The notes under the pieces were generated by a model. The model searched no databases and was not told the origin of the DNA. It saw only the letters and a list, made by a program, of their open reading frames with translations. A DNA stretch of 60,221 nucleotides, filler included. It is 4 parts of 4 records of this genome, joined end to end, with 100 filler letters (N's around TTAATTAATTAA, not from the genome) between each part and the next. Parts side by side here need not be neighbours in the genome. Positions count along the whole stretch, not along the records: positions 47,941 to 60,221 come from DRR723986_6998; 3 more parts are not named here. One strand, written 5' to 3'. Every line of letters begins with the position of its first letter. The first letter of the stretch is position 1. This document shows, in pieces, positions 37,900 through 58,388 of this stretch. The translations under genes were made by a program, and so were the position numbers.

Positions 37900-39471
37900 T
37901 CACAAATCCGCGTCTGCGGGCTTCAGGCGCGGCCAGACCAGGCTGAACCGGGCTCCACCCAGAGCTTCACTGCGGCCAACGAACGCCTGCCCCCCGTGCC
38001 AGTACAGAATCCTGCGAACAATGGACAGGCCCAGCCCATAGCCGCCCGATGTGCGGGTCCGGCTATCATCAAGCCGGGCAAAGGCGGTGAATACCTTCTC
38101 CCAATCCTGTCCCGGAATGCCCGGGCCATCGTCTTCCACATCAATCCGGCAATTATCTTCATCCAGGTGGCAACTCACCCGCACACGGCCTGCGGCATAG
38201 CGCGCGGCATTACCGACCAGGTTCTGGACCGCCCGATGAATGTAACGAGGCTCCATATCGGCCAGCGCCCAGCGCTCCGAGGCTTCGTCAATCTGACACT
38301 CAATGTCGACTCCCTCCCGGATCAGCCGCTGTTCGGAGACAACCTGCCTGACTATATCCGTGACCGAGCCCTCCCGGAGACTGAACACCGGCCCGCCCTG
38401 CTCCAGCCGGGCATAGGTCAGAATCTCGTCAATCAGTTCGTCGAGCTCCTGGATGTCGCCATCAATGCCCTCAAGCTGCTTTTCAAGCACTTCCTGGGTA
38501 CTACCGGATTCAATCATCTGGACGCCGAACCGGATACGGGCCACCGGCGTTCTCAGTTCGTGGGAAACCGCGTGAATCATTTCCCGCTGCACCTGCACCA
38601 GGCGCTGGATATGTTCCGCCATTCCATTGAACGAAGTCCCCAGCCGGGACACGAGCGTGCCCTGCTCGGATTCCACCCGGGCTCCCATCTCACCCCGGGC
38701 AATACGAATCGCTACCGACTCAACCTTGCGCAGATGACTCTCTACAAAACGCAACGCAAGAAACAGGGCCACTGCCAGCACGCCACCGACAACAGCGGTC
38801 AGCAGCAAGATAATCGGCCAGCCCCAGGGATTGAAGGGGGGAGGCAATGTCACCACAACCAACGCGCCTTCCGACAAACGAACCAGCGCCCTGGCACGGT
38901 TATCACCGTGTTCAAAAATCGCCAGCCCGGTGTCGCCAAGCCGCTCAAGCGCCTGCTGATCCGGCAGATCCTCGGCCTTCTGAACCAGACGGATATCGAG
39001 ATTCAGAGACTCTGCCAATTGCTGCGCCACATCCGCACGCTGAGCCGCAGGGCTGGTATCCAGATGCCAACGCACCATCAACGAGATTGCCCGGGCCAGA
39101 TCCCGGTAGGGTTGCTCCAGATGTATGCCGAGCACCTCGCCCCCGAGACCAAGGACATAATAGCCATACCCGCTATCGGTTGACTGCGCCACCACCTGGC
39201 CATAGCCCAGGCGCTCAAGCGCAACCCGGGAAAGCCCGAAGTCGGCCGCAACGCCACTGTGCAGACCAAACATCGGGGCCATCCAGTGATACTGACTGAG
39301 CGGATCCGGGGCCGCTGCCAGCCAACGCATAACCGGTGTCATGGCCTGCTCATGCCAGTATTGTTCGCGAACGGAGTTGATGCCGTTAAACAGCAGGACG
39401 CACACCAGCACGACCGCCGCCGCAATGGCAGCAATACGAGCGTAGGCTTTCAGGAAAAATTTCAGGGACAT
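37900..39471 (-). CDS. Sensor histidine kinase, RstB/BfmS-like
   Basis: Two TMs, HAMP, VSHELRTP, NLVGNA, VEDDGPGI and GGYGLGL motifs. Confidence 0.9.
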   Translation of the reverse strand: MSLKFFLKAYARIAAIAAAVVLVCVLLFNGINSVREQYWHEQAMTPVMRWLAAAPDPLSQYHWMAPMFGLHSGVAADFGLSRVALERLGYGQVVAQSTDSGYGYYVLGLGGEVLGIHLEQPYRDLARAISLMVRWHLDTSPAAQRADVAQQLAESLNLDIRLVQKAEDLPDQQALERLGDTGLAIFEHGDNRARALVRLSEGALVVVTLPPPFNPWGWPIILLLTAVVGGVLAVALFLALRFVESHLRKVESVAIRIARGEMGARVESEQGTLVSRLGTSFNGMAEHIQRLVQVQREMIHAVSHELRTPVARIRFGVQMIESGSTQEVLEKQLEGIDGDIQELDELIDEILTYARLEQGGPVFSLREGSVTDIVRQVVSEQRLIREGVDIECQIDEASERWALADMEPRYIHRAVQNLVGNAARYAAGRVRVSCHLDEDNCRIDVEDDGPGIPGQDWEKVFTAFARLDDSRTRTSGGYGLGLSIVRRILYWHGGQAFVGRSEALGGARFSLVWPRLKPADADL

Positions 39472-39529
39472 CGGGCCAACCCTGGTAACCGGCGTTGCCA
39501 CCTTCGGGGCGGCAACGCCTCAGGCGCGA

Positions 39530-40264
39530 TCAGGCTTCCTTGACGAACAGGTAGCCCTTGCTGCGAACGGTTTTGATACGGCGCGGGTGGATGGGATCGT
39601 CACCGATTTTCGGGCGGATCCTGGACACGCGAACGTCAATGGAACGATCCTGCCCATCGTACTCGATGCCCCGGAGTGCGGTGAAAATCTCTTCCCTGCT
39701 CAGCACCCGCCCGGCATTACTGGCCAGCAGCCAGAGCAGGTCGAACTCAGCACTGGTGAGGTCGATACTTTCGTCACTTAACCAGGCTTCACGCATGGAA
39801 CGATCGACCACGAGGTCGTTGAACTGCAAACGCACCGGCTCCTCCCCGGACGTCTCCTGCCCGCTAACGGGCGAGGTTTCTACCCGGCGCAGCATGGCAC
39901 GGATGCGGGCGAGCAGAACGCGCGGTTGGACCGGTTTGCCAATGTAGTCATCCGCGCCCATTTCCAGGCCCAGGACCTGGTCCAGGTCGTCTGTCCGGGC
40001 GGTGAGCATAATAATGGGGCCATTGAAGAACGGCCGTACCCGCCGGCAGATGGACAAACCATCTTCGCCAGGCAGCATCAGATCCAGAACCACAAGATCA
40101 GGCTGCTCGTTGCGGATCCGCTCAACAGCGGCTCCCCCGTGGGTTTCCAACGACACTGTCAGGCCATTGTTCTCAAGGTACTCGCGGGTCAGATCCGCAA
40201 GCCGCTCATCGTCCTCTACGATCAGGATTCGCCAACTCTCGTTTGTTTGTTCCACGCCATCCAT
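39530..40264 (-). CDS. OmpR-family response regulator, RstA/BfmR-like
   Basis: ILIVEDD, DLMLPG, GLEMGADDY, DRSIDVRVSRIR and IKTVRSKGY motifs; alternative GTG start at 40255. Confidence 0.93.
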   Translation of the reverse strand: MDGVEQTNESWRILIVEDDERLADLTREYLENNGLTVSLETHGGAAVERIRNEQPDLVVLDLMLPGEDGLSICRRVRPFFNGPIIMLTARTDDLDQVLGLEMGADDYIGKPVQPRVLLARIRAMLRRVETSPVSGQETSGEEPVRLQFNDLVVDRSMREAWLSDESIDLTSAEFDLLWLLASNAGRVLSREEIFTALRGIEYDGQDRSIDVRVSRIRPKIGDDPIHPRRIKTVRSKGYLFVKEA

Positions 40265-40419
40265 CTCTGATTATTTTATTCCGGTTTCAGGGTTGTACAC
40301 CCGACGATACAGGCAACGTTCAGTTACAGCAATTATACATGCTATTCAGAAATATACATGGAACCGCCAAAGGGTTACAGCCTGTGACACATATCTGTTT
40401 TCCTGAAAACGGTCTCGCA

Positions 40420-40470
40420 CTGTCACAGAGACGTCACCCCGGCGTCACCCATCTGTCATACCCGCTTCAT
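40420..40470 (+). promoter_or_regulatory. Extended Pho box (five 11-bp half-sites)
   Basis: GTCAC at 40422, 40433 and 40444, GTCAT at 40455, TTCAT at 40466: an exact 11-bp period ending 36 bp before olsB. Confidence 0.8.
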
Positions 40471-40506
40471 AGCCTTGACCTGAAACAGAAACACAGAGGC
40501 CAAGCC

Positions 40507-41268
40507 ATGACTGCAACCACCGCGAGCCTTCAACCCCGCCGGGGCCGTAACCTGAGCACCGAACTGACCCGTGACCCGGAGCTCATAGAAGCGGCGCAGC
40601 GCCTGCGTTACCGGGTATTCTCCGAGGAGTATGGCAGCGATCTCGGCGCCACAATCCCGGGTATTGATGCCGATGCCTACGATGCGGCATGCGATCACCT
40701 GATCGTCACCGACGCAGACACCGGTGAACTGGTGGCCACCACCCGCATACTTCACCAGGACGATACGGCTTCCGTTGGCGGCTTCTACTCCCGAGGCGAG
40801 TTTGATCTCGCGGCTCTGGAAGCCCTGCCCGGAACACTGGCTGAACTCGGCCGCACCTGCGTGCACCCGGACTACCGCAATGGCGGCACCATCACGCTGC
40901 TGTGGTCAGCGGTGGCGGAGTACCTGGTGCAGCGCAACGTTACCCATCTGATCGGCTGCGCCAGTATCAGCATGGCCGACGGCGGGGCGAAAGCCTGGCA
41001 TGTGGCCCGGCTTCTGCAACAACAGCATCTGTCTGAGCCGCATTGCCGGGTAACGCCAAAGCGCCAACTGCCACATCTTGCCCATCCGGAATCAGAACGC
41101 TCTGTGGACATACCGCCCCTGATCAAGGCGTACATGCGCCTGGGCGCAAGGGTCTGTGGCGAGCCTTGCTGGGATCCTGAATTCCGCTGTGCCGACATGC
41201 TGGTGCTGCTGGAGGTCAGTAACCTGGCCGGCCGCTACAGCCGGCACTTCCTGCGTCGCCCCGCCTGA
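40507..41268 (+). CDS. olsB: Ornithine N-acyltransferase (lyso-ornithine lipid synthase, GNAT)
   Basis: AQRLRYRVF, ELGRTCVHPDYRNG, LIGCAS and PPLIKAYMRLGARVCGEPCWDPEF motifs. Confidence 0.9.
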   Translation: MTATTASLQPRRGRNLSTELTRDPELIEAAQRLRYRVFSEEYGSDLGATIPGIDADAYDAACDHLIVTDADTGELVATTRILHQDDTASVGGFYSRGEFDLAALEALPGTLAELGRTCVHPDYRNGGTITLLWSAVAEYLVQRNVTHLIGCASISMADGGAKAWHVARLLQQQHLSEPHCRVTPKRQLPHLAHPESERSVDIPPLIKAYMRLGARVCGEPCWDPEFRCADMLVLLEVSNLAGRYSRHFLRRPA

Positions 41269-41283
41269 TTCGGAGGATTGCCG

Positions 41284-42102
41284 ATGAGCTGGCTTCGACT
41301 GAGCTTTCGCTTAGCAATGTTTGCAGGCTTCCTTGTCGGAGCCTGCGCGCTGGCGGCTTTGCTCCGGATCTCCGATCTGGCCAGGACCAGACCGGTGGAC
41401 AGGAATCCCTGGGCCACAATCTGTTTTCGGAAGGCATGTCAGTGCCTGGGCTGGCAGGTTCAGGTTTATGGCCAGCCCTGCCCGGAAAACGCCCTGTTTG
41501 TCGCCAACCACATCAGTTGGTCAGACATCCCGGTTCTTGGCAGCATCACGCCCATGCGGTTTCTGTCAAAAGCGGAAGTAGGTCAATGGCCGGTGATCGG
41601 CTGGCTGGCCCGGCAGGCCGGCACGCTGTTCATCAAACGTGGCGGCGGTCAGGCCAGAGCTATCAAAGCCAGTATCGCGCAATGCCTGCAGGCTGGAGAA
41701 TCGGTGATGGTCTATCCAGAGGGAACCACCAGCACCGGGGTAGCCGTATTACCCATGCACGGACTGTTGATGAGCGCCGCCCGGGACAGCAACACGGCCA
41801 TACAGCCAGTGTCCATCGGTTATCGGCGAGAACGGCGCCCTGACTCACTGGCGCCCTTTGTGGGCGATGACAGTTTCCACTGTCATCTGTTCAGGCTGCT
41901 GCGACAGCCACCGGGGCAGATCATCGTAATACTGCATCCGCCCCTTGGACCGGATCCGGATCTATCCCTGAATGAGCTGACCGGGTGCATACACCAGCAG
42001 ATCAGCCAGGGCCTCGCCCGCATTCACTCGGGCGAGTTCGACCAGGTACCCGAACGCCCTCTCAGAACAGCGGGCGACCCTGAGCTACCTCGTCTTCAGT
42101 AG
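41284..42102 (+). CDS. olsA: Lyso-ornithine lipid O-acyltransferase (PlsC family)
   Basis: NHISWSD, FLSKAEV and YPEGTT motifs; 15 bp after olsB. Confidence 0.85.
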   Translation: MSWLRLSFRLAMFAGFLVGACALAALLRISDLARTRPVDRNPWATICFRKACQCLGWQVQVYGQPCPENALFVANHISWSDIPVLGSITPMRFLSKAEVGQWPVIGWLARQAGTLFIKRGGGQARAIKASIAQCLQAGESVMVYPEGTTSTGVAVLPMHGLLMSAARDSNTAIQPVSIGYRRERRPDSLAPFVGDDSFHCHLFRLLRQPPGQIIVILHPPLGPDPDLSLNELTGCIHQQISQGLARIHSGEFDQVPERPLRTAGDPELPRLQ

Positions 42103-46516: not shown

Positions 46517-46569
46517 GGAATCTCCTTGCAATAGGTCGATAAGAGACGGGGTATAAACACGTAAACGGA

Positions 46570-46598
46570 ATGTCACGGAGTTGTCGCATTTCTGTCAT
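46570..46598 (+). promoter_or_regulatory. Pho box (three half-sites)
   Basis: ATGTCAC-ggag-TTGTCGC-attt-CTGTCAT with an 11-bp period, upstream of the GT4 gene. Confidence 0.7.
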
Positions 46599-46620
46599 GA
46601 CGTCTTTCCATAGTAAAGGC

Positions 46621-47840
46621 ATGACAGCAGAACCTTCAGGAACCCCCGTGACCGAAGCCCAGTTGACCGAACGGCGACCGCAACACATTACCATTGTTTC
46701 CGAGACGTTTCCGCCGGAAATCAATGGTGTTGCCAACACCATGCGGCACCTGTGTCAGGGGCTGATGCAACGGGGCCACCATGTAACCGTGGTGCGCCCC
46801 CGGCAGCCCCACGAACAGAAAGGACTGTTTGAGAGTACCGGGAGCGGGTTGTTTTCCACCGAACTGGTGGTTAATGGCTTGCCTCTTCCCGGCTACGCAG
46901 ATCTGCGCTTCGGTACCGCCCGCCCCTCGAGCCTGAAAAAGCTCTGGCAGAAACAGCGGCCCGACGGCATCTATGTGGCAACCCAGGGGCCACTCGGCGT
47001 GGCGGCCGTGAACGCGGCTCGCAGCCTCGCCCTGCCTGTCAGTTCCGGGTTCCATACCAACTTCCATCAGTACTCTCGCTATTACGGAGCGGGCCTGCTC
47101 GAACGGTTACTGTGTGCCTACGGTCGCTGGTTCCATAACAGAACAGCCATCACCCTGGTGCCTACCGGTCGCATGCAGCGGGTGACCCGGGACATGGGGA
47201 TCACCTGCACCGGCCTCTGGAGCCGGGGCGTGGATTGCCAGCGCTTCACCCCCCACAAACGCGACCAATCCCTGCGTCGGCAATGGGGGCTGCACGACAA
47301 CGAACGTGCCGTACTCTATGTCGGGCGCCTGGCTGCGGAAAAAAACCTGCGCATGGCTGTTGCCTGCTTCGAGCGTATCCGCGGCCTGCATCCTAATGCC
47401 CGCTTCGTGCTGGTAGGGGATGGCCCCATGCGCCGCTCCCTGGAAGACCGGCACCCGGACTACATATTCTGTGGCACACGACGGGGCGAAGATCTGGCCC
47501 GGCACTATGCCTCCGGTGACCTGTTCCTGTTTCCCAGTAAAACCGACACCTTCGGCAACGTGGTGCTGGAAGCCATGGCCAGCGGACTGGGCATCGTCGC
47601 CTTCGACGATGCTGCAGCCGCAGAACATATCCGACATGACGAAAACGGCATGAAGGCTGAACTGACAGACGACGAAGCCTTCGTCAATCACGCCCTGAGA
47701 CTGGCCGACCAGCCCTCATTGTTGAACCGAGTCCGCGCCCAGGCTCGCCTGGACGCTCTTGAATTGAATTGGAGCAGCCAGATCGACCAGTTTGAACAGC
47801 TGGTTTTAAACCAAACTGCACAGGCCCGATACCATGGCAT
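46621..47840 (+). CDS. GT4 glycosyltransferase, Agt/SQD2-like glycolipid synthase candidate (3' end at contig edge)
   Basis: ETFPPEINGVA, FHTNFHQY, YVGRLAAEKN and DTFGNVVLEAMASG motifs; alternative GTG start at 46648 behind AGGA. Confidence 0.85.
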
Positions 47841-47940
47841 NNNNNNNNNNNNNNNNNNNNNNNNNNNNNNNNNNNNNNNNNNNNTTAATTAATTAANNNN
47901 NNNNNNNNNNNNNNNNNNNNNNNNNNNNNNNNNNNNNNNN
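47841..47940. other. Artificial contig spacer
   Basis: 44 N + TTAATTAATTAA + 44 N. Confidence 0.99.
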
Positions 47941-49054
47941 CCCAGCGGCGCATCTGGGTCAGGTACCAGACGGCGTCGGAATAGTAGGGATAGGTGGCGA
48001 AGTAGCGGTAGAAGACGTTGAAGTCGGGAACGTCTCGCTTGTCGCCCTTCTCATATTCGAAGGTGCCGGTCATGGAGTTGGCGATCACTTCAGCGTCCGC
48101 ACCGACATACTCCGAGCGGGACAGGATCTCGACGGCTTCCATACGATTGGCGTTGTCGTTCTCGTCCAGCCACTTGGCCGCGCGGATCAACGCCTTGGTA
48201 AGCGCAAGCGTGGTGTTAGGATATTCTTCGGTAAATTCCTGCGTCAGACCGAAGACCTTCTCCGGATTGTTCTTCCAGATCTCGTAATCGGTGATGACCG
48301 GAACGCCGATCCCCTTGAAGACTGCCTGCTGGTTCCAGGGTTCGCCGACGCAATAGCCATAGATGGTGCCTGCTTCCAGCGTTGAAGGCATCTGCGGAGG
48401 CGGAGTGACCGACAGCAGAGCGTCTGCCTGGATCTGGCCGGAGATATCCGAACTGGAATAGAAGCCCGGGTTGATATCACCGGATGCCAGCCAGTAGCGC
48501 AGTTCGTAGTTATGGGTGGAGACGGGGAAGACCATGCCCATGTTGAACGGCTTGCCTTCGGACTTGAACTTGTCGACGACCGGCTTCAAGGCGGTTGCCT
48601 TGATCGGGTGAACCGGCTTGCCGTCGTCCTGCATTTCCAGGTGCGGCTTCATCATCTCGAAGATCTCGTTGGAAACGGTGATGCCGTTGCCGTTGAGATC
48701 CATGGAGAACGGCGTCACGATGTGTGCCTTCGTGCCGAAACCGATGGTGGCCGCCAGCGGCTGTCCGGCCAGCATGTGCGCCCCATCCAGTTCGCCCGTG
48801 ATGACCCGGTCGAGCAGAACCTTCCAGTTGGCCTGCGGCTCCAGGGTTACGAAAAGGCCTTCTTCCTCGAAATAGCCGAGCTCATAGGCAACCGCGAGCG
48901 GAGCCATGTCCGTCAGCTTGATGAAGCCGAAGGTGAGTTCGTCCTTTTCGACATCCAGCATCTCGGCATAGGCGCTGGAAGCGGACACAAGTGCCGTGGC
49001 TGCCATCAGGGCGCCAAATGCGGTCCGGCGGGTGATATTCAGGGTCTTTTTCAT
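47941..49054 (-). CDS. nrtA: Nitrate/nitrite ABC transporter substrate-binding protein (3' truncated)
   Basis: Tat-like [40 protein letters not shown] and PEKV motifs. Confidence 0.92.
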
Positions 49055-49111
49055 TGTCGCGTCCTGTCCCTCGTTCGTCCTGCGCCCTCTTCAGCCGAGC
49101 ACAGGAGCAAT

Positions 49112-49225
49112 AAAAAAGCCGCCGACCGAACCGCATGACGGGAGGAATTCCCATGCGGTTCAGATCGGCGGCTTTGCCTGTGCACCCGGCAGTGGGTGCG
49201 ATATCTGGTAGGCCAGCGTCGGCCT
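49112..49225 (-). promoter_or_regulatory. ANTAR (NasT) antitermination leader: hexaloop hairpins plus intrinsic terminator
   Basis: Hairpins AGGCC-GACGCT-GGCCT, GCACCC-ACTGCC-GGGTGC and GGC-AAAGCC-GCC; the last overlaps the 5' arm of a long terminator ending GGCGGCTTTTTT. Confidence 0.85.
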
Positions 49226-49237
49226 CACCTGCTTAAA

Positions 49238-49254
49238 AGCACGAACTGTGCCAA
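49238..49254 (-). promoter_or_regulatory. Sigma54 -24/-12 promoter
   Basis: TTGGCAC-AGTTC-GTGCT with correct GG-N10-GC spacing, just upstream of the leader. Confidence 0.8.
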
Positions 49255-49419
49255 TTTGAAAAAATTGGCTTTTCTCTTTATTTACAGATACTTACTCTTT
49301 GTAAAAATTTTGACCATATGCTCAAGCTGCATATTTGATCATCGAAGCTTGCAGGCAACTGAACGAATTTTGTGCAACGCAACCAGACTGCCGCGGCGCC
49401 AAACGTGCTGTCTCGGAAG

Positions 49420-50529
49420 TCAAAAACGGGCGCCGTCAAACATTTCGATGGTCATGTCTGTCGCTTCTCCGGTCAGCTCCAGAGCCTCCAGATAAGCGGT
49501 CGGAGAAAAGACCTTTTCAACTTCGCTTTCCGCCTCTCGCGAACGCTCCACTTGCCCCCAGCGAACCATCTGCTCGTAGAACCATTTGCCGTGAACCGGC
49601 ATTGGCGCCGCCTTGAGCCCACCCGAGAAGGTCAGGAAGTCCGGAACGTCCTTCACCGAGACCGGGCCCAGCCTGATGCGGCCCGATAGCGCTGCAAGGC
49701 AGATTTCAGCGGGGCAAGCCAGAAGGTCCGGCCTTGCGAGCATGTCGGCCAGCTCGGCATTGTTCTTCGGATCGGCGCACCAGTCGGCGGCTGCCGAAAA
49801 GGCACGCATCAGCGCGGCCAGCGTTTCCGAGTTGGCTTCGGCCCATTTGCGCGTCACGCCCAGCACTTTTTCCGGACTGTCCGGCCAGATGGCCTGTTTG
49901 TAGGTTGCAATGCGCCCCGTTCCCGCGTCGACCGCAGCCGTGTTCCAGGGTTCGCCAACGCAATATCCATCGAGCTGGCCGGCGGCCAGGGCATCCGCCA
50001 TGACCTGCGGCGCCAGTACGGTAATCTCGACATCCCGGTCCGGATCAATTCCGGCGGCGGCGAGCCAATAGCGCAATTCATAGGCATGGCCTGAAAACGG
50101 GTGCACAACCCCGAAATGAAGCAGCGGCGCATCCGCCTCCTGCTGGTTGGCAATCACCCGCGCGAGCGCCGCACCGGTCGACGTCGGGTCGCCTTCCGGA
50201 TCGGCTCCGACAGCCGACATGTCCGCCCAGAGTGCGTTGGAAACCGTAATTGCGTTGCCACCTAGCCCCAGAAGCATGGGCGCCAGCATGGGCACGGCAA
50301 GACTGGTCAGGTTGAGGCTGGATGCAATCGGCATCGGGGCGAGCATATGCGCCACGTCAAAATGACCGACCGAAATTCTGTCTCGAATATTGGCCCAGGA
50401 TGTTTCGCGGATAAGCTTAAGCGCGATGCCTTCCTGCTCGGCAAAACCGAGTTCGGCAGCCGCCACGACAACGGCACTGTCCAGAAGCGGAATAAAACCC
50501 GCAATGACAGGCTTCAAATTCGTATCCAT
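49420..50529 (-). CDS. nasS: Cytoplasmic nitrate sensor NasS
   Basis: NrtA-like ([36 protein letters not shown]) but no signal peptide; follows nasT. Confidence 0.88.
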   Translation of the reverse strand: MDTNLKPVIAGFIPLLDSAVVVAAAELGFAEQEGIALKLIRETSWANIRDRISVGHFDVAHMLAPMPIASSLNLTSLAVPMLAPMLLGLGGNAITVSNALWADMSAVGADPEGDPTSTGAALARVIANQQEADAPLLHFGVVHPFSGHAYELRYWLAAAGIDPDRDVEITVLAPQVMADALAAGQLDGYCVGEPWNTAAVDAGTGRIATYKQAIWPDSPEKVLGVTRKWAEANSETLAALMRAFSAAADWCADPKNNAELADMLARPDLLACPAEICLAALSGRIRLGPVSVKDVPDFLTFSGGLKAAPMPVHGKWFYEQMVRWGQVERSREAESEVEKVFSPTAYLEALELTGEATDMTIEMFDGARF

Positions 50530-50589
50530 GATCCTCCAGTCCCCTGGTTGGCCGCTTCTCCCCACTCGGTGTCTTTTGTTGTCATCGCG

Positions 50590-51177
50590 TCAGTCTCCCA
50601 GAAGTCCGCTGGCGATCACCAGGCTCTGCGCCACATCAATGATCTTCCGGCTCTGGTTCATGGCCGTACGACGCAACAGGTCATAAGCCTCCTGCTCGCT
50701 GAGCCCCTTCGATTTCATCAGGATGCCCTTGGCCCGATCGATTGTTTTCCGGTCTGCAAGTTCAGAGCGCACTTCCTCCAGCTCCTCTGTCAGCCTGGAA
50801 AACGCACGAAAGCGGCTGATCGCCATGTCTAGGATCGATTTGACCCGCTCCCGCTTGAGCCCGTCGACGATATAGGCTGACACCCCCGCGTCGACGGCCG
50901 CCTCGATGGAATGGCTGTCCGACTTGTCGACGAACATGGCAATCGGTCGCCGCACCGCGCGAGACACCTGAAACATGTGTTCCAGCTGGTCGCGATTCGG
51001 GTTCTCCAGATCGATGACAATCACATCCGGATTGATATCGGCGATCTGACGAACCAGTCCTTCCATCTGGTGAACAAGAATGACCCTATCGTGCCCGGCA
51101 TCGTGCAATCCCTGCTCGATGATCGAGGCACGGATCTTGTTGTCATCTATAACCAGAATGGAAAGCCCGCCGCTCAT
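50590..51177 (-). CDS. nasT: ANTAR response regulator NasT
   Basis: Pseudo-receiver domain plus ANTAR (LADRKTIDRAKGILM...EAYDLLRRTAM). Confidence 0.92.
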   Translation of the reverse strand: MSGGLSILVIDDNKIRASIIEQGLHDAGHDRVILVHQMEGLVRQIADINPDVIVIDLENPNRDQLEHMFQVSRAVRRPIAMFVDKSDSHSIEAAVDAGVSAYIVDGLKRERVKSILDMAISRFRAFSRLTEELEEVRSELADRKTIDRAKGILMKSKGLSEQEAYDLLRRTAMNQSRKIIDVAQSLVIASGLLGD

Positions 51178-51383
51178 GCCGCCATTATGCGCAGGGCTAT
51201 TTTTTATGCAACAAAAATGCTGCGCCGCAACAACGCTGTCCTGTGAAGACATTCTGAAGTCACCCTGGAGCGCTTGAAACCGGACTTGCGAAAGGCGGGA
51301 ATCAAAAGAAGATTTCTCCTCTGGACAGAACCCCACAGCCTTAGAATGATGCACCGGGAAAATTCAGGATGAAGGAAAGCGGG

Positions 51384-51569
51384 ATGGCGGACACGTTTGA
51401 GCCGAAGGCGCATGTGGCCCACATGGAAAAGATGTTGGGGCTGACGATCGAAGAAGATTGGCGACCTGTTGTGGAAATGCATATCACCGCGATCGAGAAA
51501 GCTGCCGAAGCCGTCCTGGATTTCCCACTGGAAGACCACGCCGAAGCCGCACCGGTCTTTGTTCCATGA
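51384..51569 (+). CDS. Small AtzG/HpxX-like (DUF4089) amidase partner
   Basis: LGLTIEEDWRPVV...FPL...EAAPVFVP; ATGA-coupled to the amidase. Confidence 0.8.
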   Translation: MADTFEPKAHVAHMEKMLGLTIEEDWRPVVEMHITAIEKAAEAVLDFPLEDHAEAAPVFVP

Positions 51570-52978
51570 GCCAGGACAACAGCAAACTGTACACCCGCTC
51601 CGCGGCTCAGACGGCCACAGCCGTCAACAGCGGCGACATCAAGGCTCTGGAAGTTGCCTACGCATCTCTCGAGACCATTGAACGTCTCAATCCGACGGTC
51701 AACGCCTTTACCGACGTTCTGGGGGAGCGTGCACTTCTTGAAGCGCGCGCTGTCGATGACGCGATTACAGAGGGCCGAACACTGCCACTCGCCGGTGTCC
51801 CATATGCGGTCAAGAACCTGTATGATGTCGAAGGCCTGACAACCCGCGCCGGCGCGAAGATCAATCGCGAAAACCCGCCTGCTTCTGCCGATGCGACTTT
51901 GGTCCGCAAGCTGAAGGACGCTGGCGCAGTTCTGGTCGGCGCGACCCACATGGGCGAATACGCCTATGATTTTACCGGCGAGAGCGCACACGACGGCATC
52001 TGCCGCAATCCTCATGATACGGGTCATATGACCGGGGGGTCTTCCTCCGGATCTGCCGCGGCAACGGCTGCCGGCATGGTGCCGCTGGCAATGGGCTCCG
52101 ATACCAATGGCTCCATCCGCGTGCCGGCCTCGTTCTGCGGCCTGTTCGGCTTGAAGCCGACCTATGGACGTCTCAGCCGCGCCGGCACCTATCCCTTTGT
52201 CAGCAGCCTCGATCACCTCGGTCCGCTGACACGTTCGGCAGAAGATCTTGCCCTGATCTTTGACGTCCTGCAGGGCCACGACCCAGCGGACCCGGCCCAG
52301 GCAAACCATCCGGAAATCGAGACCCATAACCGGCTGCAGGAAGATATCGGCCCGCTGCGCATTGCCGTGGCAGGTGGCTATTTCCGCGACAAGGCCCTGC
52401 CGGATGCCCTGAATGCGGTAGACCTTGTCGCCAAGGCGCTTGGGGCAAGCCTTGAGATTGACATTCCGGAAGCTGCACGGGCCCGCGCCGCTGCCTATGT
52501 CATTACGGCGGCCGAAGGCTCTACCCTGCATCTCGGCCGTATCCTGGAACGGCCGCAGGACTTTGACCCGGAAACGCGTGACCGCTTCCTGGCGGGAACC
52601 ATGGTACCGGCAATCTGGGTCCAGCAGGCCCAGCGCTTCCGGAGCTGGTTTCGCGACCTCTTCCGCAAGATTTTCGAGAATGTCGATGTTCTTCTGGCCC
52701 CGGCCACCCCCTTCCCGGCCCTGCCGTCAGGTACCAAAACTTTCACGATCGGCGGTGAAACCATGCCGGCCCGTCCCAACATCGGCCTGTTTACCCAGCC
52801 AATCTCCTTCATCGGCCTTCCCGCGGTGACGGTACCAGTCTGGCTGGAAGGGGCGACATTGCCGATCGGTGTTCAGGTGATCGCCCCTGCCTGGCGCGAG
52901 GATCTGGCGCTTCGTGTCGCTCACCACCTGGAACAGACAGGTATCTGCCGCGCTCCCGTCGCCAATTTGACGGCCTGA
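51566..52978 (+). CDS. AtzE-family amidase (Ser-cisSer-Lys)
   Basis: AVKNLYD, GEYAYDFTGE, GGSSSGS, GSDTNGSIRVPAS and FTQPISFIGLP motifs. Confidence 0.88.
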   Translation: MSQDNSKLYTRSAAQTATAVNSGDIKALEVAYASLETIERLNPTVNAFTDVLGERALLEARAVDDAITEGRTLPLAGVPYAVKNLYDVEGLTTRAGAKINRENPPASADATLVRKLKDAGAVLVGATHMGEYAYDFTGESAHDGICRNPHDTGHMTGGSSSGSAAATAAGMVPLAMGSDTNGSIRVPASFCGLFGLKPTYGRLSRAGTYPFVSSLDHLGPLTRSAEDLALIFDVLQGHDPADPAQANHPEIETHNRLQEDIGPLRIAVAGGYFRDKALPDALNAVDLVAKALGASLEIDIPEAARARAAAYVITAAEGSTLHLGRILERPQDFDPETRDRFLAGTMVPAIWVQQAQRFRSWFRDLFRKIFENVDVLLAPATPFPALPSGTKTFTIGGETMPARPNIGLFTQPISFIGLPAVTVPVWLEGATLPIGVQVIAPAWREDLALRVAHHLEQTGICRAPVANLTA

Positions 52979-52984
52979 AGCCCG

Positions 52985-53878
52985 GTGAAAAGGGAACAGG
53001 CCCGCACCACAGGAAATCTCAGCCTGGCGCAACTGCGAGCGCTGGAAGCTGTCGTGCGCACCGGAAGCTTCACAGATGCAGCGAAGGAAATCGGCATCTC
53101 CCAACCCTCCATCTCCAATCACATTCAAGGTCTGGAAAGCCGCTTCAAGACAAAACTGCTGGTAAAGTCCGGATATTCCGTTTCAGCGACCCCGGCTCTG
53201 GTCTCTCTATTGCCCCGCATCAGGGCCTTGCTGGCATTGGCAGGCGATCTGGAAACCGAGCTGTCTCACCACCGCGCCCTGGCGGCTGGTGAACTCAGGA
53301 TTGGCTATTCAACCTATCAGCTCGCCATCCCGATCATCTCGTCCTTCATGGCGAAACACCCGACCATCTCGATCGAGGCACGCGCCCTTGCAAGCCAGGA
53401 CATCATCAACCTGATCGAAACAGGCTCTCTCGATATCGGCTTCATTACCGGACGCGAAATTCCGGCAGGTCTCGAAGGCGAACTGATCCTGAAGACACGA
53501 ATTGTCCTCGCGGTTCCTCCCGAACACCCGCTGGCGAAAAAGGACAGCGCTTCCTGGAAAGACGTCGCCGAGCTCCCACTTCTCCAACGCGAAGGAAGTT
53601 CCGGTACCCGCAGACTGTTCGAAGCCGCTGCCACGCTTGCCGGGACAAGACCCAAGACCGCGCTCGCTCTTGGCTCCTGGGGGTCAATCGCAACGCTGGT
53701 CAGATCCGGCTCGGGTATCGGTGTCGCGCTGGAAGCGGAAATCACCGAGCGCGACGGTTGTGTCGGTGTCAGGATCGAAGACGCGAACCTCAACGCAAAC
53801 CACTTTGCAGTCTGGCAAAAAGACATGGGTACAGTGGCCGCCATAGAGGCATTTCGAGCCGGTATGCCCGCTTCATGA
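52985..53878 (+). CDS. LysR-family transcriptional regulator
   Basis: LAQLRAL...GSFTDAA...SQPSIS HTH and REGSSGTR; GTG start. Confidence 0.92.
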   Translation: MKREQARTTGNLSLAQLRALEAVVRTGSFTDAAKEIGISQPSISNHIQGLESRFKTKLLVKSGYSVSATPALVSLLPRIRALLALAGDLETELSHHRALAAGELRIGYSTYQLAIPIISSFMAKHPTISIEARALASQDIINLIETGSLDIGFITGREIPAGLEGELILKTRIVLAVPPEHPLAKKDSASWKDVAELPLLQREGSSGTRRLFEAAATLAGTRPKTALALGSWGSIATLVRSGSGIGVALEAEITERDGCVGVRIEDANLNANHFAVWQKDMGTVAAIEAFRAGMPAS

Positions 53879-53901
53879 CAAATTGAAGTCGCCAGCCATT
53901 T

Positions 53902-53918
53902 TATAATTAAAACCTATA
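53902..53918. promoter_or_regulatory. Putative LysR recognition site
   Basis: TATA-ATTAAAACC-TATA, containing a T-N11-A core, about 150 bp upstream of the oxidase. Confidence 0.5.
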
Positions 53919-54069
53919 CATTTCGATCTTTGATAGACCGAAATAAACTTCCGTGATTACTGGCGTCTGACGCTTTCAAAACCACTGCACCAGAGTCGAT
54001 TTCATCGCCCACGACAAAAGCGTGATACTGACTTTGAACGGCTCCAGCACAATTCCAGAGACCGCCTGA

Positions 54070-55197
54070 ATGAAACAGAGATCTTATGACCTTGCGATCG
54101 TCGGTGCCGGGATCGTGGGACTTGCGCACGCCCTCGCAGCAGTCAGGCGCGGCAAGAAAGTTGTCGTCATTGATCGCGACTTCCAGGCAAATGGCGCATC
54201 GATCCGCAACTTCGGTTTTGTGACCGTCACCGGCCAACAGGCAGGCGACTGCTGGCAGAAAGCATCGCGCAGCCGACAGGTGTGGGCCGAAGTTGCGACA
54301 GCCGCCCGCATACCGCTGCTGCACGAAGGTCTGACCATGACCGCAAGGCTCCCGGAGTCCGAAGCTGTTATCGACGCGTTTCTGAAGACAGAAATGGGTG
54401 CGGAGTGTCAGCGCCTGACACCCGCTGAGGCCGCCCACAAGGTTCCCTGTTTGCGACAGGAGAAAATTACCCGCGCGCTCTATTCACCGCTTGAAGTGCG
54501 TGTGGAATCGAAAGACGCCCTGCCCCGGATCGCCAATTGGCTGAAAGAAGCCCATGCAGTCGACTTCCTCTGGCAGACAAGCGTCAATTCTGTCGAGGCG
54601 CCGAAGCTTCAAACCTCGCGCGGGACGGTGCACGCGGAGACCGTGATCATCTGCCCCGGCGACGATGGCACGACGCTTTTTGCTGACCGGATTGCCACTT
54701 ACGAAGTCACGCGCTGCAAACTGCAGATGTTGCGCGTCGCCCCTCGCAATCGTATCGACCTTGGCACCGCAGTCATGTCTGACCTCGGCCTTGCGCGATA
54801 TCTTGGCTATGCCGAACTCCCCGAAGCAGAGCCTTTGAAAGCCCGGCTGGATCGGGAGATGGCTGTTCACCGGGAAAACGGCATTCACCTGATCGTTGTC
54901 CAGTCCGAAGACGGCAGTCTCGTTGTCGGCGACAGCCATCATTACAGCTCGACACCCGATCCGTTCATCGACAAGACCGTGAACGACCTGATCCTGGGCG
55001 AGATGGAGACGATCCTCGATCTTGGCCCCTATGACATTTCTGAAACCTGGATCGGCACCTACGCCTCTGCCCCGGACCGCTGGCGCTTCACCGATGCGCC
55101 GGACGATAGTACCCGCATTGTCGTCGTCACGGCCGGCTGCGGTGCCTCCACCGCCTTCGCCATCGGCGAGGAAACCATTGCCGATCTCTATGCATGA
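54070..55197 (+). CDS. FAD-dependent oxidoreductase, phosphonate-associated TIGR03364-like (Pbf-type aminoalkylphosphonate oxidase candidate)
   Basis: VGAGIVGLAHA, GASIRNFG, CKLQMLR, HLIVVQ...GDSH and GCGASTAFA motifs; directly upstream of phnX. Confidence 0.85.
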   Translation: MKQRSYDLAIVGAGIVGLAHALAAVRRGKKVVVIDRDFQANGASIRNFGFVTVTGQQAGDCWQKASRSRQVWAEVATAARIPLLHEGLTMTARLPESEAVIDAFLKTEMGAECQRLTPAEAAHKVPCLRQEKITRALYSPLEVRVESKDALPRIANWLKEAHAVDFLWQTSVNSVEAPKLQTSRGTVHAETVIICPGDDGTTLFADRIATYEVTRCKLQMLRVAPRNRIDLGTAVMSDLGLARYLGYAELPEAEPLKARLDREMAVHRENGIHLIVVQSEDGSLVVGDSHHYSSTPDPFIDKTVNDLILGEMETILDLGPYDISETWIGTYASAPDRWRFTDAPDDSTRIVVVTAGCGASTAFAIGEETIADLYA

Positions 55198-55206
55198 GGA
55201 AACAAG

Positions 55207-55989
55207 ATGAGCAAATTCAAAGCCGTGGTCTTCGACTGGGCCGGCACCATGATCGACTTCGGTTCCTTTGCCCCGATGGGTGTCTTCGTAAAGGCCTTCG
55301 ATACCTTCGGCATTACCGCAACCATCGACCAGGCACGCGGCCCGATGGGCAAACCGAAGTGGGACCACATCCGCTCCATGATGGATGATCCGGACATCTG
55401 CGCCCAATGGATCGCCAAATACGGCCAAGCACCAACTGATGCCGATGTGGACAAGGTCTACAAGGTCTTCGTTCCAATGAACGAGGAAGTCGTCGCCGAT
55501 TTCTCCGATCTCGTTCCAGGTGCTGCCGAGGTTGTCAGATTGCTTCGCGCCAAGGGCATGAAAATCGGCTCGACCACCGGCTATACCCGCTCGATCATGG
55601 AACGCGTGCTGCCGAAAGCTGCCGAACAGGGTTATGAACCGGACAATCTCATCTGTGCCGACGACCTGCCGGAAGGCCGTCCCGGTCCGCTCGGCATGTA
55701 TCAGTGCTTCGTCGATCTGGTGGCCTACCCGCCGAGCGCGGTCATCAAGGTGGACGACACTGAACCGGGCATTGCCGAGGGTGTTGCAGCCGGCTGCCTG
55801 ACTGTTGGTCTTGCGCTGTCAGGCAACTATGCAGGCAAGACACCGGAGGAACTCGCTGCACTTTCGAAAGATCAGGTTGACGTCCTGCGCCAGCATGCAA
55901 CGGTAGAGCTGAAAAAAGCCGGCGCCGACTACGTCATTGATACGGTCGCGGATCTGCCAGCCCTGATCGAGAAACTGGAAGCGGAATGA
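55207..55989 (+). CDS. phnX: Phosphonoacetaldehyde hydrolase (phosphonatase)
   Basis: VFDWAGTMIDFGSFAP, PMGKPKWDHIR (Schiff-base Lys), GSTTGY and KVDDT motifs. Confidence 0.95.
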   Translation: MSKFKAVVFDWAGTMIDFGSFAPMGVFVKAFDTFGITATIDQARGPMGKPKWDHIRSMMDDPDICAQWIAKYGQAPTDADVDKVYKVFVPMNEEVVADFSDLVPGAAEVVRLLRAKGMKIGSTTGYTRSIMERVLPKAAEQGYEPDNLICADDLPEGRPGPLGMYQCFVDLVAYPPSAVIKVDDTEPGIAEGVAAGCLTVGLALSGNYAGKTPEELAALSKDQVDVLRQHATVELKKAGADYVIDTVADLPALIEKLEAE

Positions 55990-57482
55990 CACGTCCGAAT
56001 ATCCTGCTGATCACCGCTGACCAGTGGCGGGGCGATTGTCTCGGCACAGTTGGACACCCTGTTGTCAGGACGCCGAACCTTGATGCCTTCGCCGCAACGG
56101 CAACAGTTTTCGAGCAGCATTATGCGGCAACGGCTCCGTGCTCTCCTGCACGGGCCTCGCTCTATACCGGACTTTACCAGATGAACCACCGGGTCGTGTG
56201 GAATGGCGCACCACTCGATGATCGGTTCGACAATATCGCCCGTGCTGCCCGCCGGGCCGGATATACGCCAACGTTGTTCGGCTACACCGATACCTCACCC
56301 GATCCGCGCCTGCATCACCCGAACGACCCCGTCCTGACTTCCTATGAAGGTGTTCTGCCCGGCTTCTGGGTACGCCAGCCGCTTGCCGAGGACGAAAAGC
56401 AGTGGCTTTCCTGGATGGTTTCACGCGGTCACGATCCCGCAGGTTTGCCTACCATCCATCACGTGGAACCCGAAGAAGGTGAAAAAGTCAGCCTCAAGGC
56501 AGCCAGGTATTCGAAGGACGAAACCCAGACAGCCTTCATGACGGATGCCTTCCTCACCTGGCTTGGAGAACAGGATGAAGACCGGCCATGGATGGCGCAT
56601 GTTTCCTTCCTGCGACCGCATCCGCCGATTGCCGCTCCTGCCCCCTATAACACCCTCTACAATCCCGATGACGGGCCGGGTTTCTCCGGGGCACCAACTG
56701 CGGCGGAGGAAGCTGCGTTTCACCCCTTCATGGAAGCCCTGCAGGATTATCAGCAGCTGGCCTCCCATCTACCGGGGACCACTGACTTCGTTCGTGATCT
56801 GACGGAGCGCGATCTCAGGCGGTTGCGAGCACTTTATTACGGCATGATCACCGAAGTTGACGCACAGCTCGGCCGGATCTTCGAGGCGCTGGAACCACTC
56901 GAAAACACGTTGGTTGTTTTCACCTCCGATCATGCGGAGATGATGGGCGATCACTGGATGCTCGGCAAAAGCGGGTTCTACCGCGAGAGCTACCACATCC
57001 CCCTCATGATACGGGCACCGGGTGGCGGTGCAGCGAACCGGGTCTCCGCCTTCACGTCCTCGACCGATATCTTCCCGACACTCCTGGATCTGCTGGATAT
57101 CGAACCCGAGCATGCCCCGGACGGAGCCAGCCTGCTGCCGTACCTCAGCGGACAAACGCCTCTGTCCTGGCGAGATGCTGCTCTCTGGGAGTTCGATTAC
57201 CGGCAATTTCTGAAAAAATGGCCGGAGAAGTTCCCGGCATCTGCCCATGAAGGATCCTCCGCAGCACTTTGCCGCCTCGGGCCGGAATGGCAGTTCGTGC
57301 ATTTCTCCGGAATGCCGAACATTCTGATGAAGGCCGCCTGCACGTCCACCGCGCCGGTCAACGAGGCGGCCAGTCACCCGGACCTGGTGATCGCCAACCT
57401 TGATGCCCTTGTGGCAACCCGGATGCGCCACAACGACGAGACCCTGGCCCGCACCCTGGTCTGGGACTACTATCGGGAATAG
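55986..57482 (+). CDS. Phosphonate monoester hydrolase / phosphodiesterase (formylglycine sulfatase superfamily)
   Basis: NILLITADQWR, CSPARASLYTG (CxPxR), PMH-type MNHR and GYTDTSPDPR, RPHPP and TSDHAEMMGDH motifs; ATGA-coupled to phnX. Confidence 0.85.
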   Translation: MTRPNILLITADQWRGDCLGTVGHPVVRTPNLDAFAATATVFEQHYAATAPCSPARASLYTGLYQMNHRVVWNGAPLDDRFDNIARAARRAGYTPTLFGYTDTSPDPRLHHPNDPVLTSYEGVLPGFWVRQPLAEDEKQWLSWMVSRGHDPAGLPTIHHVEPEEGEKVSLKAARYSKDETQTAFMTDAFLTWLGEQDEDRPWMAHVSFLRPHPPIAAPAPYNTLYNPDDGPGFSGAPTAAEEAAFHPFMEALQDYQQLASHLPGTTDFVRDLTERDLRRLRALYYGMITEVDAQLGRIFEALEPLENTLVVFTSDHAEMMGDHWMLGKSGFYRESYHIPLMIRAPGGGAANRVSAFTSSTDIFPTLLDLLDIEPEHAPDGASLLPYLSGQTPLSWRDAALWEFDYRQFLKKWPEKFPASAHEGSSAALCRLGPEWQFVHFSGMPNILMKAACTSTAPVNEAASHPDLVIANLDALVATRMRHNDETLARTLVWDYYRE

Positions 57483-57560
57483 CGAGGACTTTCGCAGGTC
57501 CGCTTAGCGTCACGTTAAGCGTCGAACGACAGAATGAACCCTCCAATGGGACTCTGAAGA

Positions 57561-58388
57561 ATGCGTCAGACTTTGCGGAAAAATCGGCTATTCACCGGGA
57601 TTGGACGGAGTGTCCTCCGGACCATGGGGCTGGCTCTCGTCGCACTGTTCTCGCACCAGCATGTGTCCGCGGCCCCGATTGAGCTCAAGGTCATTGACTC
57701 GGTCGATCCCCCCTGGCCGTCCATAGGACGGGTAAACGTTGCCGGCTTCAGGTCGACTGCCATGTGTACCGGCACCTTGATCGCACCCGATATCGTGCTC
57801 ACAGCCGCCCATTGCCTCTACAACAAGACGACCCGCAAGCCCTTTCCGATCGAAGACCTTCTGTTCATGGCCGGTGTTCGGCGGGACGAATACTCCGCCC
57901 GCTTGGAACCTGCATGCACCATCACCGCTGCAGGATACGAGCCACGGCAGAAACCCAGGTTGCGGGAGGTACACAAGGATGTCGGGATCATTCTGCTGAA
58001 GGAACCCAGCACATTACCGCCCGTTCCGGTGCTTTCGCTGGATGAGGCAACAGTTCTGACCAAGGACACACGGTTTCAATCCGCAGGCTATCGCCGCAGC
58101 CGCCGTTTTCTGCCAACCGTCGTGCCCGCGTGCAGGGTCATGGGAACCGCCGAGGACAGCTGGGTAACGGATTGCGCATCGGAAGCCGGCGCATCGGGCG
58201 GTCCGCTCCTGGTGGAAACGCCGAACGGGCTCCGTGTTGCCGGCATCATGTCGGCCAAGATCGACGCCGTCCGCTCAGCCATCGTGCCTTTCCTGGAATG
58301 GCAGGACCTTTTGGCCAATCCGCGCTGCAGCGGTGACAGTGCTCCGGCAACCCCGCCACTCCGGTCATCGCTTGATACGGACAACTGA
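57561..58388 (+). CDS. Trypsin-like (V8-type) serine protease, exported
   Basis: CTGTLI, LTAAHC, D and GASGGP catalytic motifs; the start could instead be the Met at 57624. Confidence 0.85.

Follow-up and report, generated by a model that had tools for sequence, protein, structure and literature searches.

We describe a cluster of four genes, lysR, pbfD, phnX and pmh, at positions 52985–57482 on the plus strand of a 60,221-nucleotide stretch of DNA (the window, referring to the whole stretch). On the evidence presented here, it is somewhat more probable than otherwise that the cluster is a LysR-controlled, phosphate-independent operon for compounds of the aminoethylphosphonate (AEP) type, in which a phosphonate monoester hydrolase (PMH) serves as a conserved accessory enzyme that de-esterifies an O-ester of AEP or N-methyl-AEP. 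A large share of natural phosphonate occurs as esters with glycans and lipids, and we know of no enzymes that free it; PMHs, for their part, are textbook examples of enzyme promiscuity. Because the pairing of PMH with AEP operons recurs in many relatives, the natural function of PMHs becomes directly testable, and the conserved coupled PMH, together with an importer linked to it in culturable relatives (for example Roseibium aggregatum IAM 12614), supplies concrete substrates, genes, and strains for doing so. If the interpretation is correct, marine phosphonate cycling would gain an entry step.

Organization of the cluster

The lysR gene (52985–53878) has a GTG start and encodes a regulator with PF00126 and PF03466 domains. 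A 191-bp gap (53879–54069), the putative operon promoter, separates it from pbfD (54070–55197), which encodes an FAD-dependent aminophosphonate oxidase. The gene for phosphonoacetaldehyde hydrolase, phnX (55207–55989), follows after 9 bp, and its TGA stop codon is overlapped by the ATG of pmh (55986–57482) in the sequence ATGA (55986–55989), so that the formylglycine-type hydrolase is translationally coupled to PhnX. A first-pass annotation of the window had reported this arrangement, from the LysR gene and the FAD oxidase through the 9-bp gap to the overlapping sulfatase-fold gene with a CxPxR motif, and open reading frame (ORF) calls and curated models agree with it throughout. RNA-library contigs from four libraries span 52700–57800 with 90–99% likeness. 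One X1 contig stops at 53953, and its successor starts at 53983 and extends past pmh; the X7 contigs break at about 53990–54015, and those of X5 and X18 are continuous; none of these contigs is used here as evidence of transcription, start sites, or co-transcription.

The hydrolase belongs to the PMH group

The hydrolase has a PF00884 Sulfatase domain. In phmmer searches of the PDB, it matches the solved PMHs 4uph, 2vqr, 4upk, and 2w8s with 553, 314, 307, and 304 bits, respectively, versus 155 and 147 bits for the dimeric arylsulfatases 4upi and 4upl and at most 114 bits for choline sulfatases. The formylglycine motif CxPxR is present as C52-S-P54-A-R56, and its cysteine and arginine are invariant in all 32 rows of a marine clade and all 43 rows of a Rhizobiaceae clade of homologues (see below). 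When aligned to RlPMH, for which the reference sequence was taken from plasmid pRL9 (locus L081), the protein keeps all PMH catalytic residues, namely D12, Q13, C52-x-P-x-R56, N73, Y100, H212, D315, H316, and K328; we take the RlPMH counterparts outside the formylglycine motif to be D12, Q13, N78, Y105, H218, D324, H325, and K337. Position 102 is aspartate where RlPMH has T107, and this aspartate is shared with SpPMH and all 75 close homologues. PMH-type enzymes are marked by a histidine metal ligand, which is asparagine in classical arylsulfatases, and by a glutamine after the first aspartate (PMC12421950, in part); the window hydrolase has both the histidine and Gln13. The structure 4uph, named ArPMH in the same part of that paper, is by eye identical over its aligned N-terminal stretch to a Rhizobium rhizogenes protein (locus L038), except at the nucleophile position.

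Judged by its sequence, then, the hydrolase is a member of the PMH group, as the first-pass annotation had proposed when it set the protein apart from true sulfatases. It represents a different subfamily from the PehA equivalog: PehA (NF045661) is its best NCBIfam match, with a score of 413.3 bits against a cut-off of 900. Because the metal ligand D12 is located only 12 residues into the protein, there is no space for a signal peptide, which points to a cytoplasmic enzyme. PF03781, the formylglycine-generating domain, has matches in the genomes of five of five relatives, although this domain is shared with other enzymes.

PbfD stands in for PhnW

The oxidase scores 468.6 bits with TIGR03364 (cut-off 285.1) and contains PF01266; the score and the clustering with phnX together identify it as a PbfD. 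Orthologues with 44–91% identity immediately precede phnX at 12 genome loci and at L104–L107. PhnX itself belongs to the phosphonatase equivalog TIGR01422 (333.4 bits, cut-off 220). Using tblastn (E ≤ 1e-3), no match was found in the window for PhnW, PbfA, the ABC-importer proteins of relatives, or a glycerophosphodiesterase, so the window lacks the phnW of the classical PhnW–PhnX pathway. Among the genomes of four pbfD-type relatives, none has a PhnW above the cut-off (best score 85 bits versus 400.8), whereas in a phnW-type relative the PhnW model reaches 452.7 bits inside the cluster. Since PhnW is missing from all four pbfD-type genomes at this cut-off, pbfD stands in for phnW. The genes of the PbfD family commonly occur with phnX alone, as most of those outside the PbfD1 subgroup do, and the enzymes, PbfD2 among them, oxidize N-methyl-AEP and AEP to phosphonoacetaldehyde (PMC10590968, in part), in keeping with the suggestion of the first-pass annotation that a Pbf-type oxidase could bypass PhnW. 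PhnJ is present in all five of the relatives' genomes searched, and C–P lyase is therefore present there as well.

Linkage of PMH and phnX across genomes

A survey of species-representative genomes returned 80 PMH loci, with the closest homologues in R. aggregatum IAM 12614 (88% identity) and Stappia sp. BW2 (87%). In 28 of these loci phnX lies beside the PMH gene, accompanied by pbfD in 12 cases, by phnW in 14, and by neither in two. The 4-nt overlap (ATGA or GTGA) is kept in 21 of the 27 loci in which the two genes share a strand. In a rapid maximum-likelihood tree built from 78 full-length homologues (six partial rows were dropped), a marine clade of 32 rows, comprising Stappiaceae, Paracoccaceae, and Cohaesibacter, has an SH-aLRT support of 99; of these rows, 27 have phnX directly upstream, accompanied by pbfD or phnW. 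RlPMH falls far outside both this clade and its Rhizobiaceae sister clade.

An independent sample of 401 evenly drawn alphaproteobacterial genomes gave a similar picture. PhnX occurs in 37 of them and a PMH-family protein (E ≤ 1e-50) in 67; the two are found together in 21 genomes, corresponding to an odds ratio of 9.1 and p = 4e-9, uncorrected for kinship. The two genes are no more than 2 kb apart in seven of the 21 genomes, and all five same-strand cases among these are pbfD–phnX–PMH triads. Four of the five triads are deeply divergent, with PMH 37–40% and PhnX 41–71% identical to the proteins of the window; these triads came up independently of the first survey. Because the linkage recurs in relatives, it goes beyond chance, and the conservation that the first-pass annotation had counted on is borne out.

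The chromosomal site that corresponds to 52985–57482 of the window, bounded by the NMT1/ANTAR genes on one side and the trypsin-like/NAD kinase genes on the other, is a variable island in Stappiaceae loci L001–L026. It takes at least five forms: lysR-ABC-pbfD-phnX-pmh, lysR-pbfD-phnX-pmh, lysR-phnW-phnX-pmh, ABC-phnW-phnX-pmh, and pmh alone. An Aliiroseovarius metagenome-assembled genome has the order lysR-phnW-phnX-pmh-pbfA-ABC, in which a gene for (R)-1-hydroxy-2-AEP ammonia-lyase (pbfA, L062:9473-10750; NF049939, 592 bits) directly follows pmh and is itself followed by the SBP_bac_5 importer described in the next section. On a metagenome contig (L115:3849-5098), genes for a GNAT acetyltransferase and a methyltransferase are located between an ABC ATPase gene and pbfD-phnX-pmh, and may be further accessory genes for N-modified aminophosphonates.

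An ABC importer in related genomes

The locus of R. aggregatum IAM 12614 shares its synteny with the window, from NMT1-type genes, an AtzE amidase gene and lysR through pbfD-phnX-pmh to a trypsin-like gene and an NAD kinase gene, and differs by five ABC genes between lysR and pbfD. These encode a 684-residue SBP_bac_5 binding protein, two permeases, and two ATPases with an oligo_HPY domain (genome G001), and in this nearest relative they stand behind the same promoter segment with its LysR-box-like site. The first-pass statement that the cluster lacks a transporter therefore holds for the window and fails for its nearest relative. Of the 28 phnX-linked loci, 10 have importer orthologues (72–100% identity) beside the cluster; these loci belong to Roseibium, Cohaesibacter, and Aliiroseovarius and contain either pbfD or phnW. 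The ABC system beside RlPMH was considered as the same importer and rejected, since its ATPases are only 42–46% identical and it offers no match to the binding protein.

Among solved structures, the nearest relatives of the binding protein are SPH1118 (248 bits), a pectin-binding protein (PMC9314435, in part), and 5ipw (243 bits), an uncharacterized, putative oligopeptide-binding protein. Alpha-galactoside-binding and chitin-oligosaccharide-binding proteins are found among the further matches, and characterized peptide-binding proteins score lower. Because the binding protein resembles those for carbohydrates, a sugar ester derived from phosphonoglycans is favored over a lipid head group as the substrate. 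A glycerophosphodiesterase gene comes right after PMH in three loci (L109, L144, and L154), which would keep a glycerol ester in play. As to known AEP-binding proteins, the relatives have only sub-threshold PhnS2/PhnS-like matches, the best with 342 bits versus a cut-off of 392.75.

We also surveyed metagenomes, using the best 80 of 522 relatives, many of which are on short contigs. Importer homologues with at least 43% identity occur near PMH-family genes in 10 of these 80 loci, mostly without phnX, and importer and PMH therefore look like an uptake-and-hydrolysis unit to which AEP genes have become attached in marine lineages.

The regulator and its promoter region

TIGR03339 (phn_lysR) is the top NCBIfam match of the LysR protein, at 169.2 bits, which is below the membership cut-off of 341.1. 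In other genera, orthologues with 46–91% identity stand ahead of phnW- and pbfD-type clusters, and the amidase gene that lies upstream in the window is absent there. An alignment shows that the first ~60 nt past the lysR stop are kept in the window-type loci (the window, L002, and L016) and at the junction between lysR and the binding-protein gene in genomes G001 and G003. Within this stretch lies a putative LysR-box-like site of the form ATA-N9-TAT (T-N11-A), ATAATTAAAACCTAT, at 53903–53917 on the plus strand. Exactly one such site is present in each of 12 of 12 lysR-downstream regions, irrespective of whether pbfD, phnW, or the gene for the binding protein comes next, and the phnW-type clusters of other genera have it as well. 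The linkage to phn genes in several genera and the T-N11-A site support an AepR-like role for LysR.

A scan for TGTCA-N6-TGTCA found no convincing Pho box before pbfD, only two matches with two mismatches each (53865 and 54012, both on the minus strand), and the number of matches overall was at chance level (39 versus 37.8 expected). Pho-box-like sites are recognizable in the DNA of the window, since phased TGTCA arrays occur at 40421–40469 and 46560–46597. The operon thus appears to be under LysR control and outside the Pho regulon, and on this point, including the absence of a nearby Pho box, the predictions made from the first reading of the DNA are upheld. No match to the sigma-70 consensus was found on the plus strand of 52700–57800, and the counts of that scan were at the level of shuffled sequence.

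The array at 40421–40469 consists of four overlapping matches in an 11-bp phase. On one side it is flanked by a divergently oriented response-regulator/histidine-kinase pair (39530–40264 and 37900–39501, minus strand) and on the other by a GNAT (Acetyltransf_5) gene at about 40243–41268, followed by an acyltransferase gene (41278–42102). The latter pair resembles OlsB/OlsA of ornithine lipid synthesis, and the ensemble may represent Pho-regulated lipid remodeling. The second array has three TGTCA-like repeats, also in an 11-bp phase, where a glycosyltransferase family 4/1 gene (46570–47892) begins, possibly another Pho-regulated membrane glycolipid gene.

Neighboring genes

The window has a G+C content of 60.7%, and outside the regions described here it carries cobalamin, folate, and housekeeping genes; Pfam scans of its other ORFs revealed no phosphonate gene, whether for biosynthesis or otherwise, and no transporter adjacent to the cluster. 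The upstream block (47885–52978) consists of two NMT1_2 binding-protein genes, an ANTAR response regulator gene (50590–51354, minus strand), and an AtzE-family amidase gene (51458–52978; NF006631, 682 bits), the stop of which is 6 nt from the lysR start. This block is syntenic across Roseibium relatives, even where the phn genes are different or absent. Downstream, a gene for a secreted trypsin-like protease (57561–58388) follows pmh after 78 nt in the same orientation, and no terminator is predicted in the gap. Its synteny with pmh holds across Roseibium loci, even those that lack phnX.

Proposed mechanism and alternative explanations

In the mechanism that we propose, the operon would reside in a Roseibium/Stappia-like chromosome and serve AEP-type compounds. 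An O-ester of AEP or N-methyl-AEP would reach the cytoplasm, through the SBP_bac_5 importer where this is present. PMH most likely acts first and would strip the alcohol from the imported ester to yield the free phosphonate; PbfD would then convert AEP or N-methyl-AEP to phosphonoacetaldehyde by oxidative deamination, and PhnX would cleave the C–P bond to give phosphate and acetaldehyde, the latter two activities being assigned from family-level evidence. LysR would induce the presumably co-transcribed genes, with the substrate as the presumed inducer. The nearest relative would have the fuller form of the operon, in which the ester enters through the five-gene ABC importer and the substrate may be a sugar–AEP ester from phosphonoglycans; the window would then represent a reduced, importer-less form. 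A bolder version, which we regard as possible and put forward tentatively, is that the physiological role of PMH is to de-esterify, in the cytoplasm, phosphonate-decorated sugars that have been imported as phosphonoglycan fragments carrying AEP or N-methyl-AEP, and that the ABC system with the 684-residue SBP_bac_5 protein is a new class of phosphonate-conjugate importer. With PbfD or PhnW and PhnX, this would amount to a full pathway, induced by LysR and independent of phosphate, by which esterified marine phosphonates yield phosphate.

Several observations weigh against a dedicated AEP-ester step. The phnX-linked enzymes show no signature of AEP specificity relative to the Rhizobiaceae sister clade, because only four positions define the clade (G20/S, Y225/F, L272/W, and V492/L) and none of them changes a charge. 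In that sister clade, which includes the ArPMH lineage, phnX is upstream in none of the 43 rows; five rows of the marine clade have no phnX next to PMH; phnX adjoins PMH in only three of the 80 metagenome loci; and the characterized RlPMH and SpPMH have no phn neighbors. The hydrolase misses the PehA equivalog cut-off, we found no paper that establishes the natural substrate of PMHs, and the family is promiscuous in vitro, accepting phosphodiesters, sulfates, and sulfonates (PMC3693508 and PMC12421950, both in part). Genomes G002 and G004, which have the window-type arrangement, contain no importer orthologue (best identity 31–32%), and because the importer is absent from the window as well, the route for the ester is missing there. 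PMH is, furthermore, kept at the same chromosomal place in four genomes without any PhnX. For this reason, and because most distant PMH-family genes are unlinked to phnX, PMH is not exclusively a part of AEP pathways. The three-step AEP-ester route of the first-pass annotation is accordingly plausible but only partly supported: the use of pbfD for phnW, the PMH membership, and the linkage all hold up, and the action of the hydrolase on AEP esters is a proposal.

The same observations lend some weight to an explanation in which PMH scavenges phosphodiesters and phosphonate esters in a general, promiscuous way, its gene being located in a variable organophosphorus island, and feeds several routes, such as C–P lyase and phosphatases, instead of being a dedicated first step for AEP esters. 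PMH occurs without phnX in L017–L020, and four of five such genomes (L017–L019 and L048) have no PhnX at all; PhnJ is found in every relative searched, modules of PMH and importer exist without phnX in metagenomes, and the in vitro promiscuity fits. A role of this kind was postulated in 2017, with PMH-like enzymes releasing the esterified phosphonates of dissolved organic matter (PMC5649143, in part). Even so, we consider this explanation unlikely, given that the 4-nt overlap with phnX is so often kept, that the triad recurs in divergent lineages, and that apparent control by LysR rather than the Pho regulon would be unusual for a general phosphorus scavenger. The glycerophosphodiesterase genes next to PMH, the lack of an importer in the window, and the ability of PMHs to hydrolyze diesters besides phosphonate monoesters (PMC3693508, in part) would also suit a hydrolase acting on another P–O bond of AEP metabolism, for example a CMP-AEP type anhydride or a glycerophospho-type diester, in order to recycle or detoxify an intermediate. 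This is improbable in view of the link between pmh and the importer in relatives and of the absence from the window of any visible phosphonate biosynthesis gene.

The two remaining explanations concern the integrity and the identity of the cluster. It could be a decaying remnant, in which loss of the importer has left the three enzymes without a functioning pathway, seeing that the five ABC genes of G001 and G003 are missing from the window and have no orthologue elsewhere in G002 and G004. Against such decay, which we rate as improbable too, all four ORFs are intact, with scores over the cut-off or catalytic residues kept, the reduced arrangement persists in three lineages (the window, L002, and L016), and the sub-threshold PhnS2-like binding proteins elsewhere in relatives suggest that free AEP may still enter. 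Finally, the Sulfatase domain and the CxPxR motif, and the sulfatase kinetics of two close dimeric relatives, SpAS1 and SpAS2 (PMC12421950, in part), raise the prospect of a true sulfatase hitch-hiking beside phnX; the large gap in score between the four solved PMHs and the sulfatases, the PMH-type histidine ligand with Gln13, and the conserved coupling to phnX make this very improbable. We retain the LysR-controlled AEP-type operon with an accessory, de-esterifying PMH as our preferred interpretation.

Comparison with known systems

Parts of this arrangement are already in print, namely pbfD–phnX clusters, control by LysR (AepR), and the bare adjacency of pmh to phnWX or phnWYA. Our searches of the literature found no description of the pbfD–phnX–pmh triad, the conserved overlap, the linked importer, or the shared promoter site, and no experimental assay of the role of PMH. 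In the pbfD–phnX clusters of Zangelmi et al. (2023; PMC10590968, in part), a TIGR03364-type FAD oxidase likewise directly precedes phnX and phnW is absent. The window differs in having pmh translationally coupled to phnX; the words "sulfatase" and "monoester" are absent from the main text of that paper, to which this check was confined.

At the protein level, the hydrolase resembles ArPMH (4uph), RlPMH (2vqr), BcPMH/PehA (2w8s), and SpPMH (4upk) in fold and in all catalytic residues (the formylglycine motif, the D/D/H ligands, Q13, N, Y, H, and K), with about 53% identity to the ArPMH lineage and 37–40% to RlPMH and SpPMH. Its clade is linked to phnX, unlike RlPMH, SpPMH, and the Rhizobiaceae homologues: no phnX is found within 8 kb of the ArPMH-like gene of R. 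rhizogenes (L038), and a related plasmid locus of Rhizobium sp. NLR16a has no phn neighbors.

The closest precedents for the gene neighborhood are the phnW-phnX-pmh and phnWYA-pmh-lysR clusters of dinoflagellate-associated isolates (2026; PMC13608971, in part), in which pmh also lies by AEP degradation genes in marine Alphaproteobacteria. That paper gives the adjacency as a description, without mention of pbfD, and neither proposes nor assays a role; the present analysis describes the pbfD form, the overlap, the importer, and the promoter site. With respect to regulation, the cluster is similar to the AepR system of Stappia stellulata, a related marine alphaproteobacterium, in which a LysR gene lies upstream of a phosphate-insensitive AEP operon and induction by the substrate was proposed (Murphy et al. 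2021; PMC8316502, in part). That system combines AepXVW with PhnWAY, whereas the operons described here combine PbfD, PhnX, and PMH, in relatives together with an importer of the Opp/Dpp (SBP_bac_5) type.

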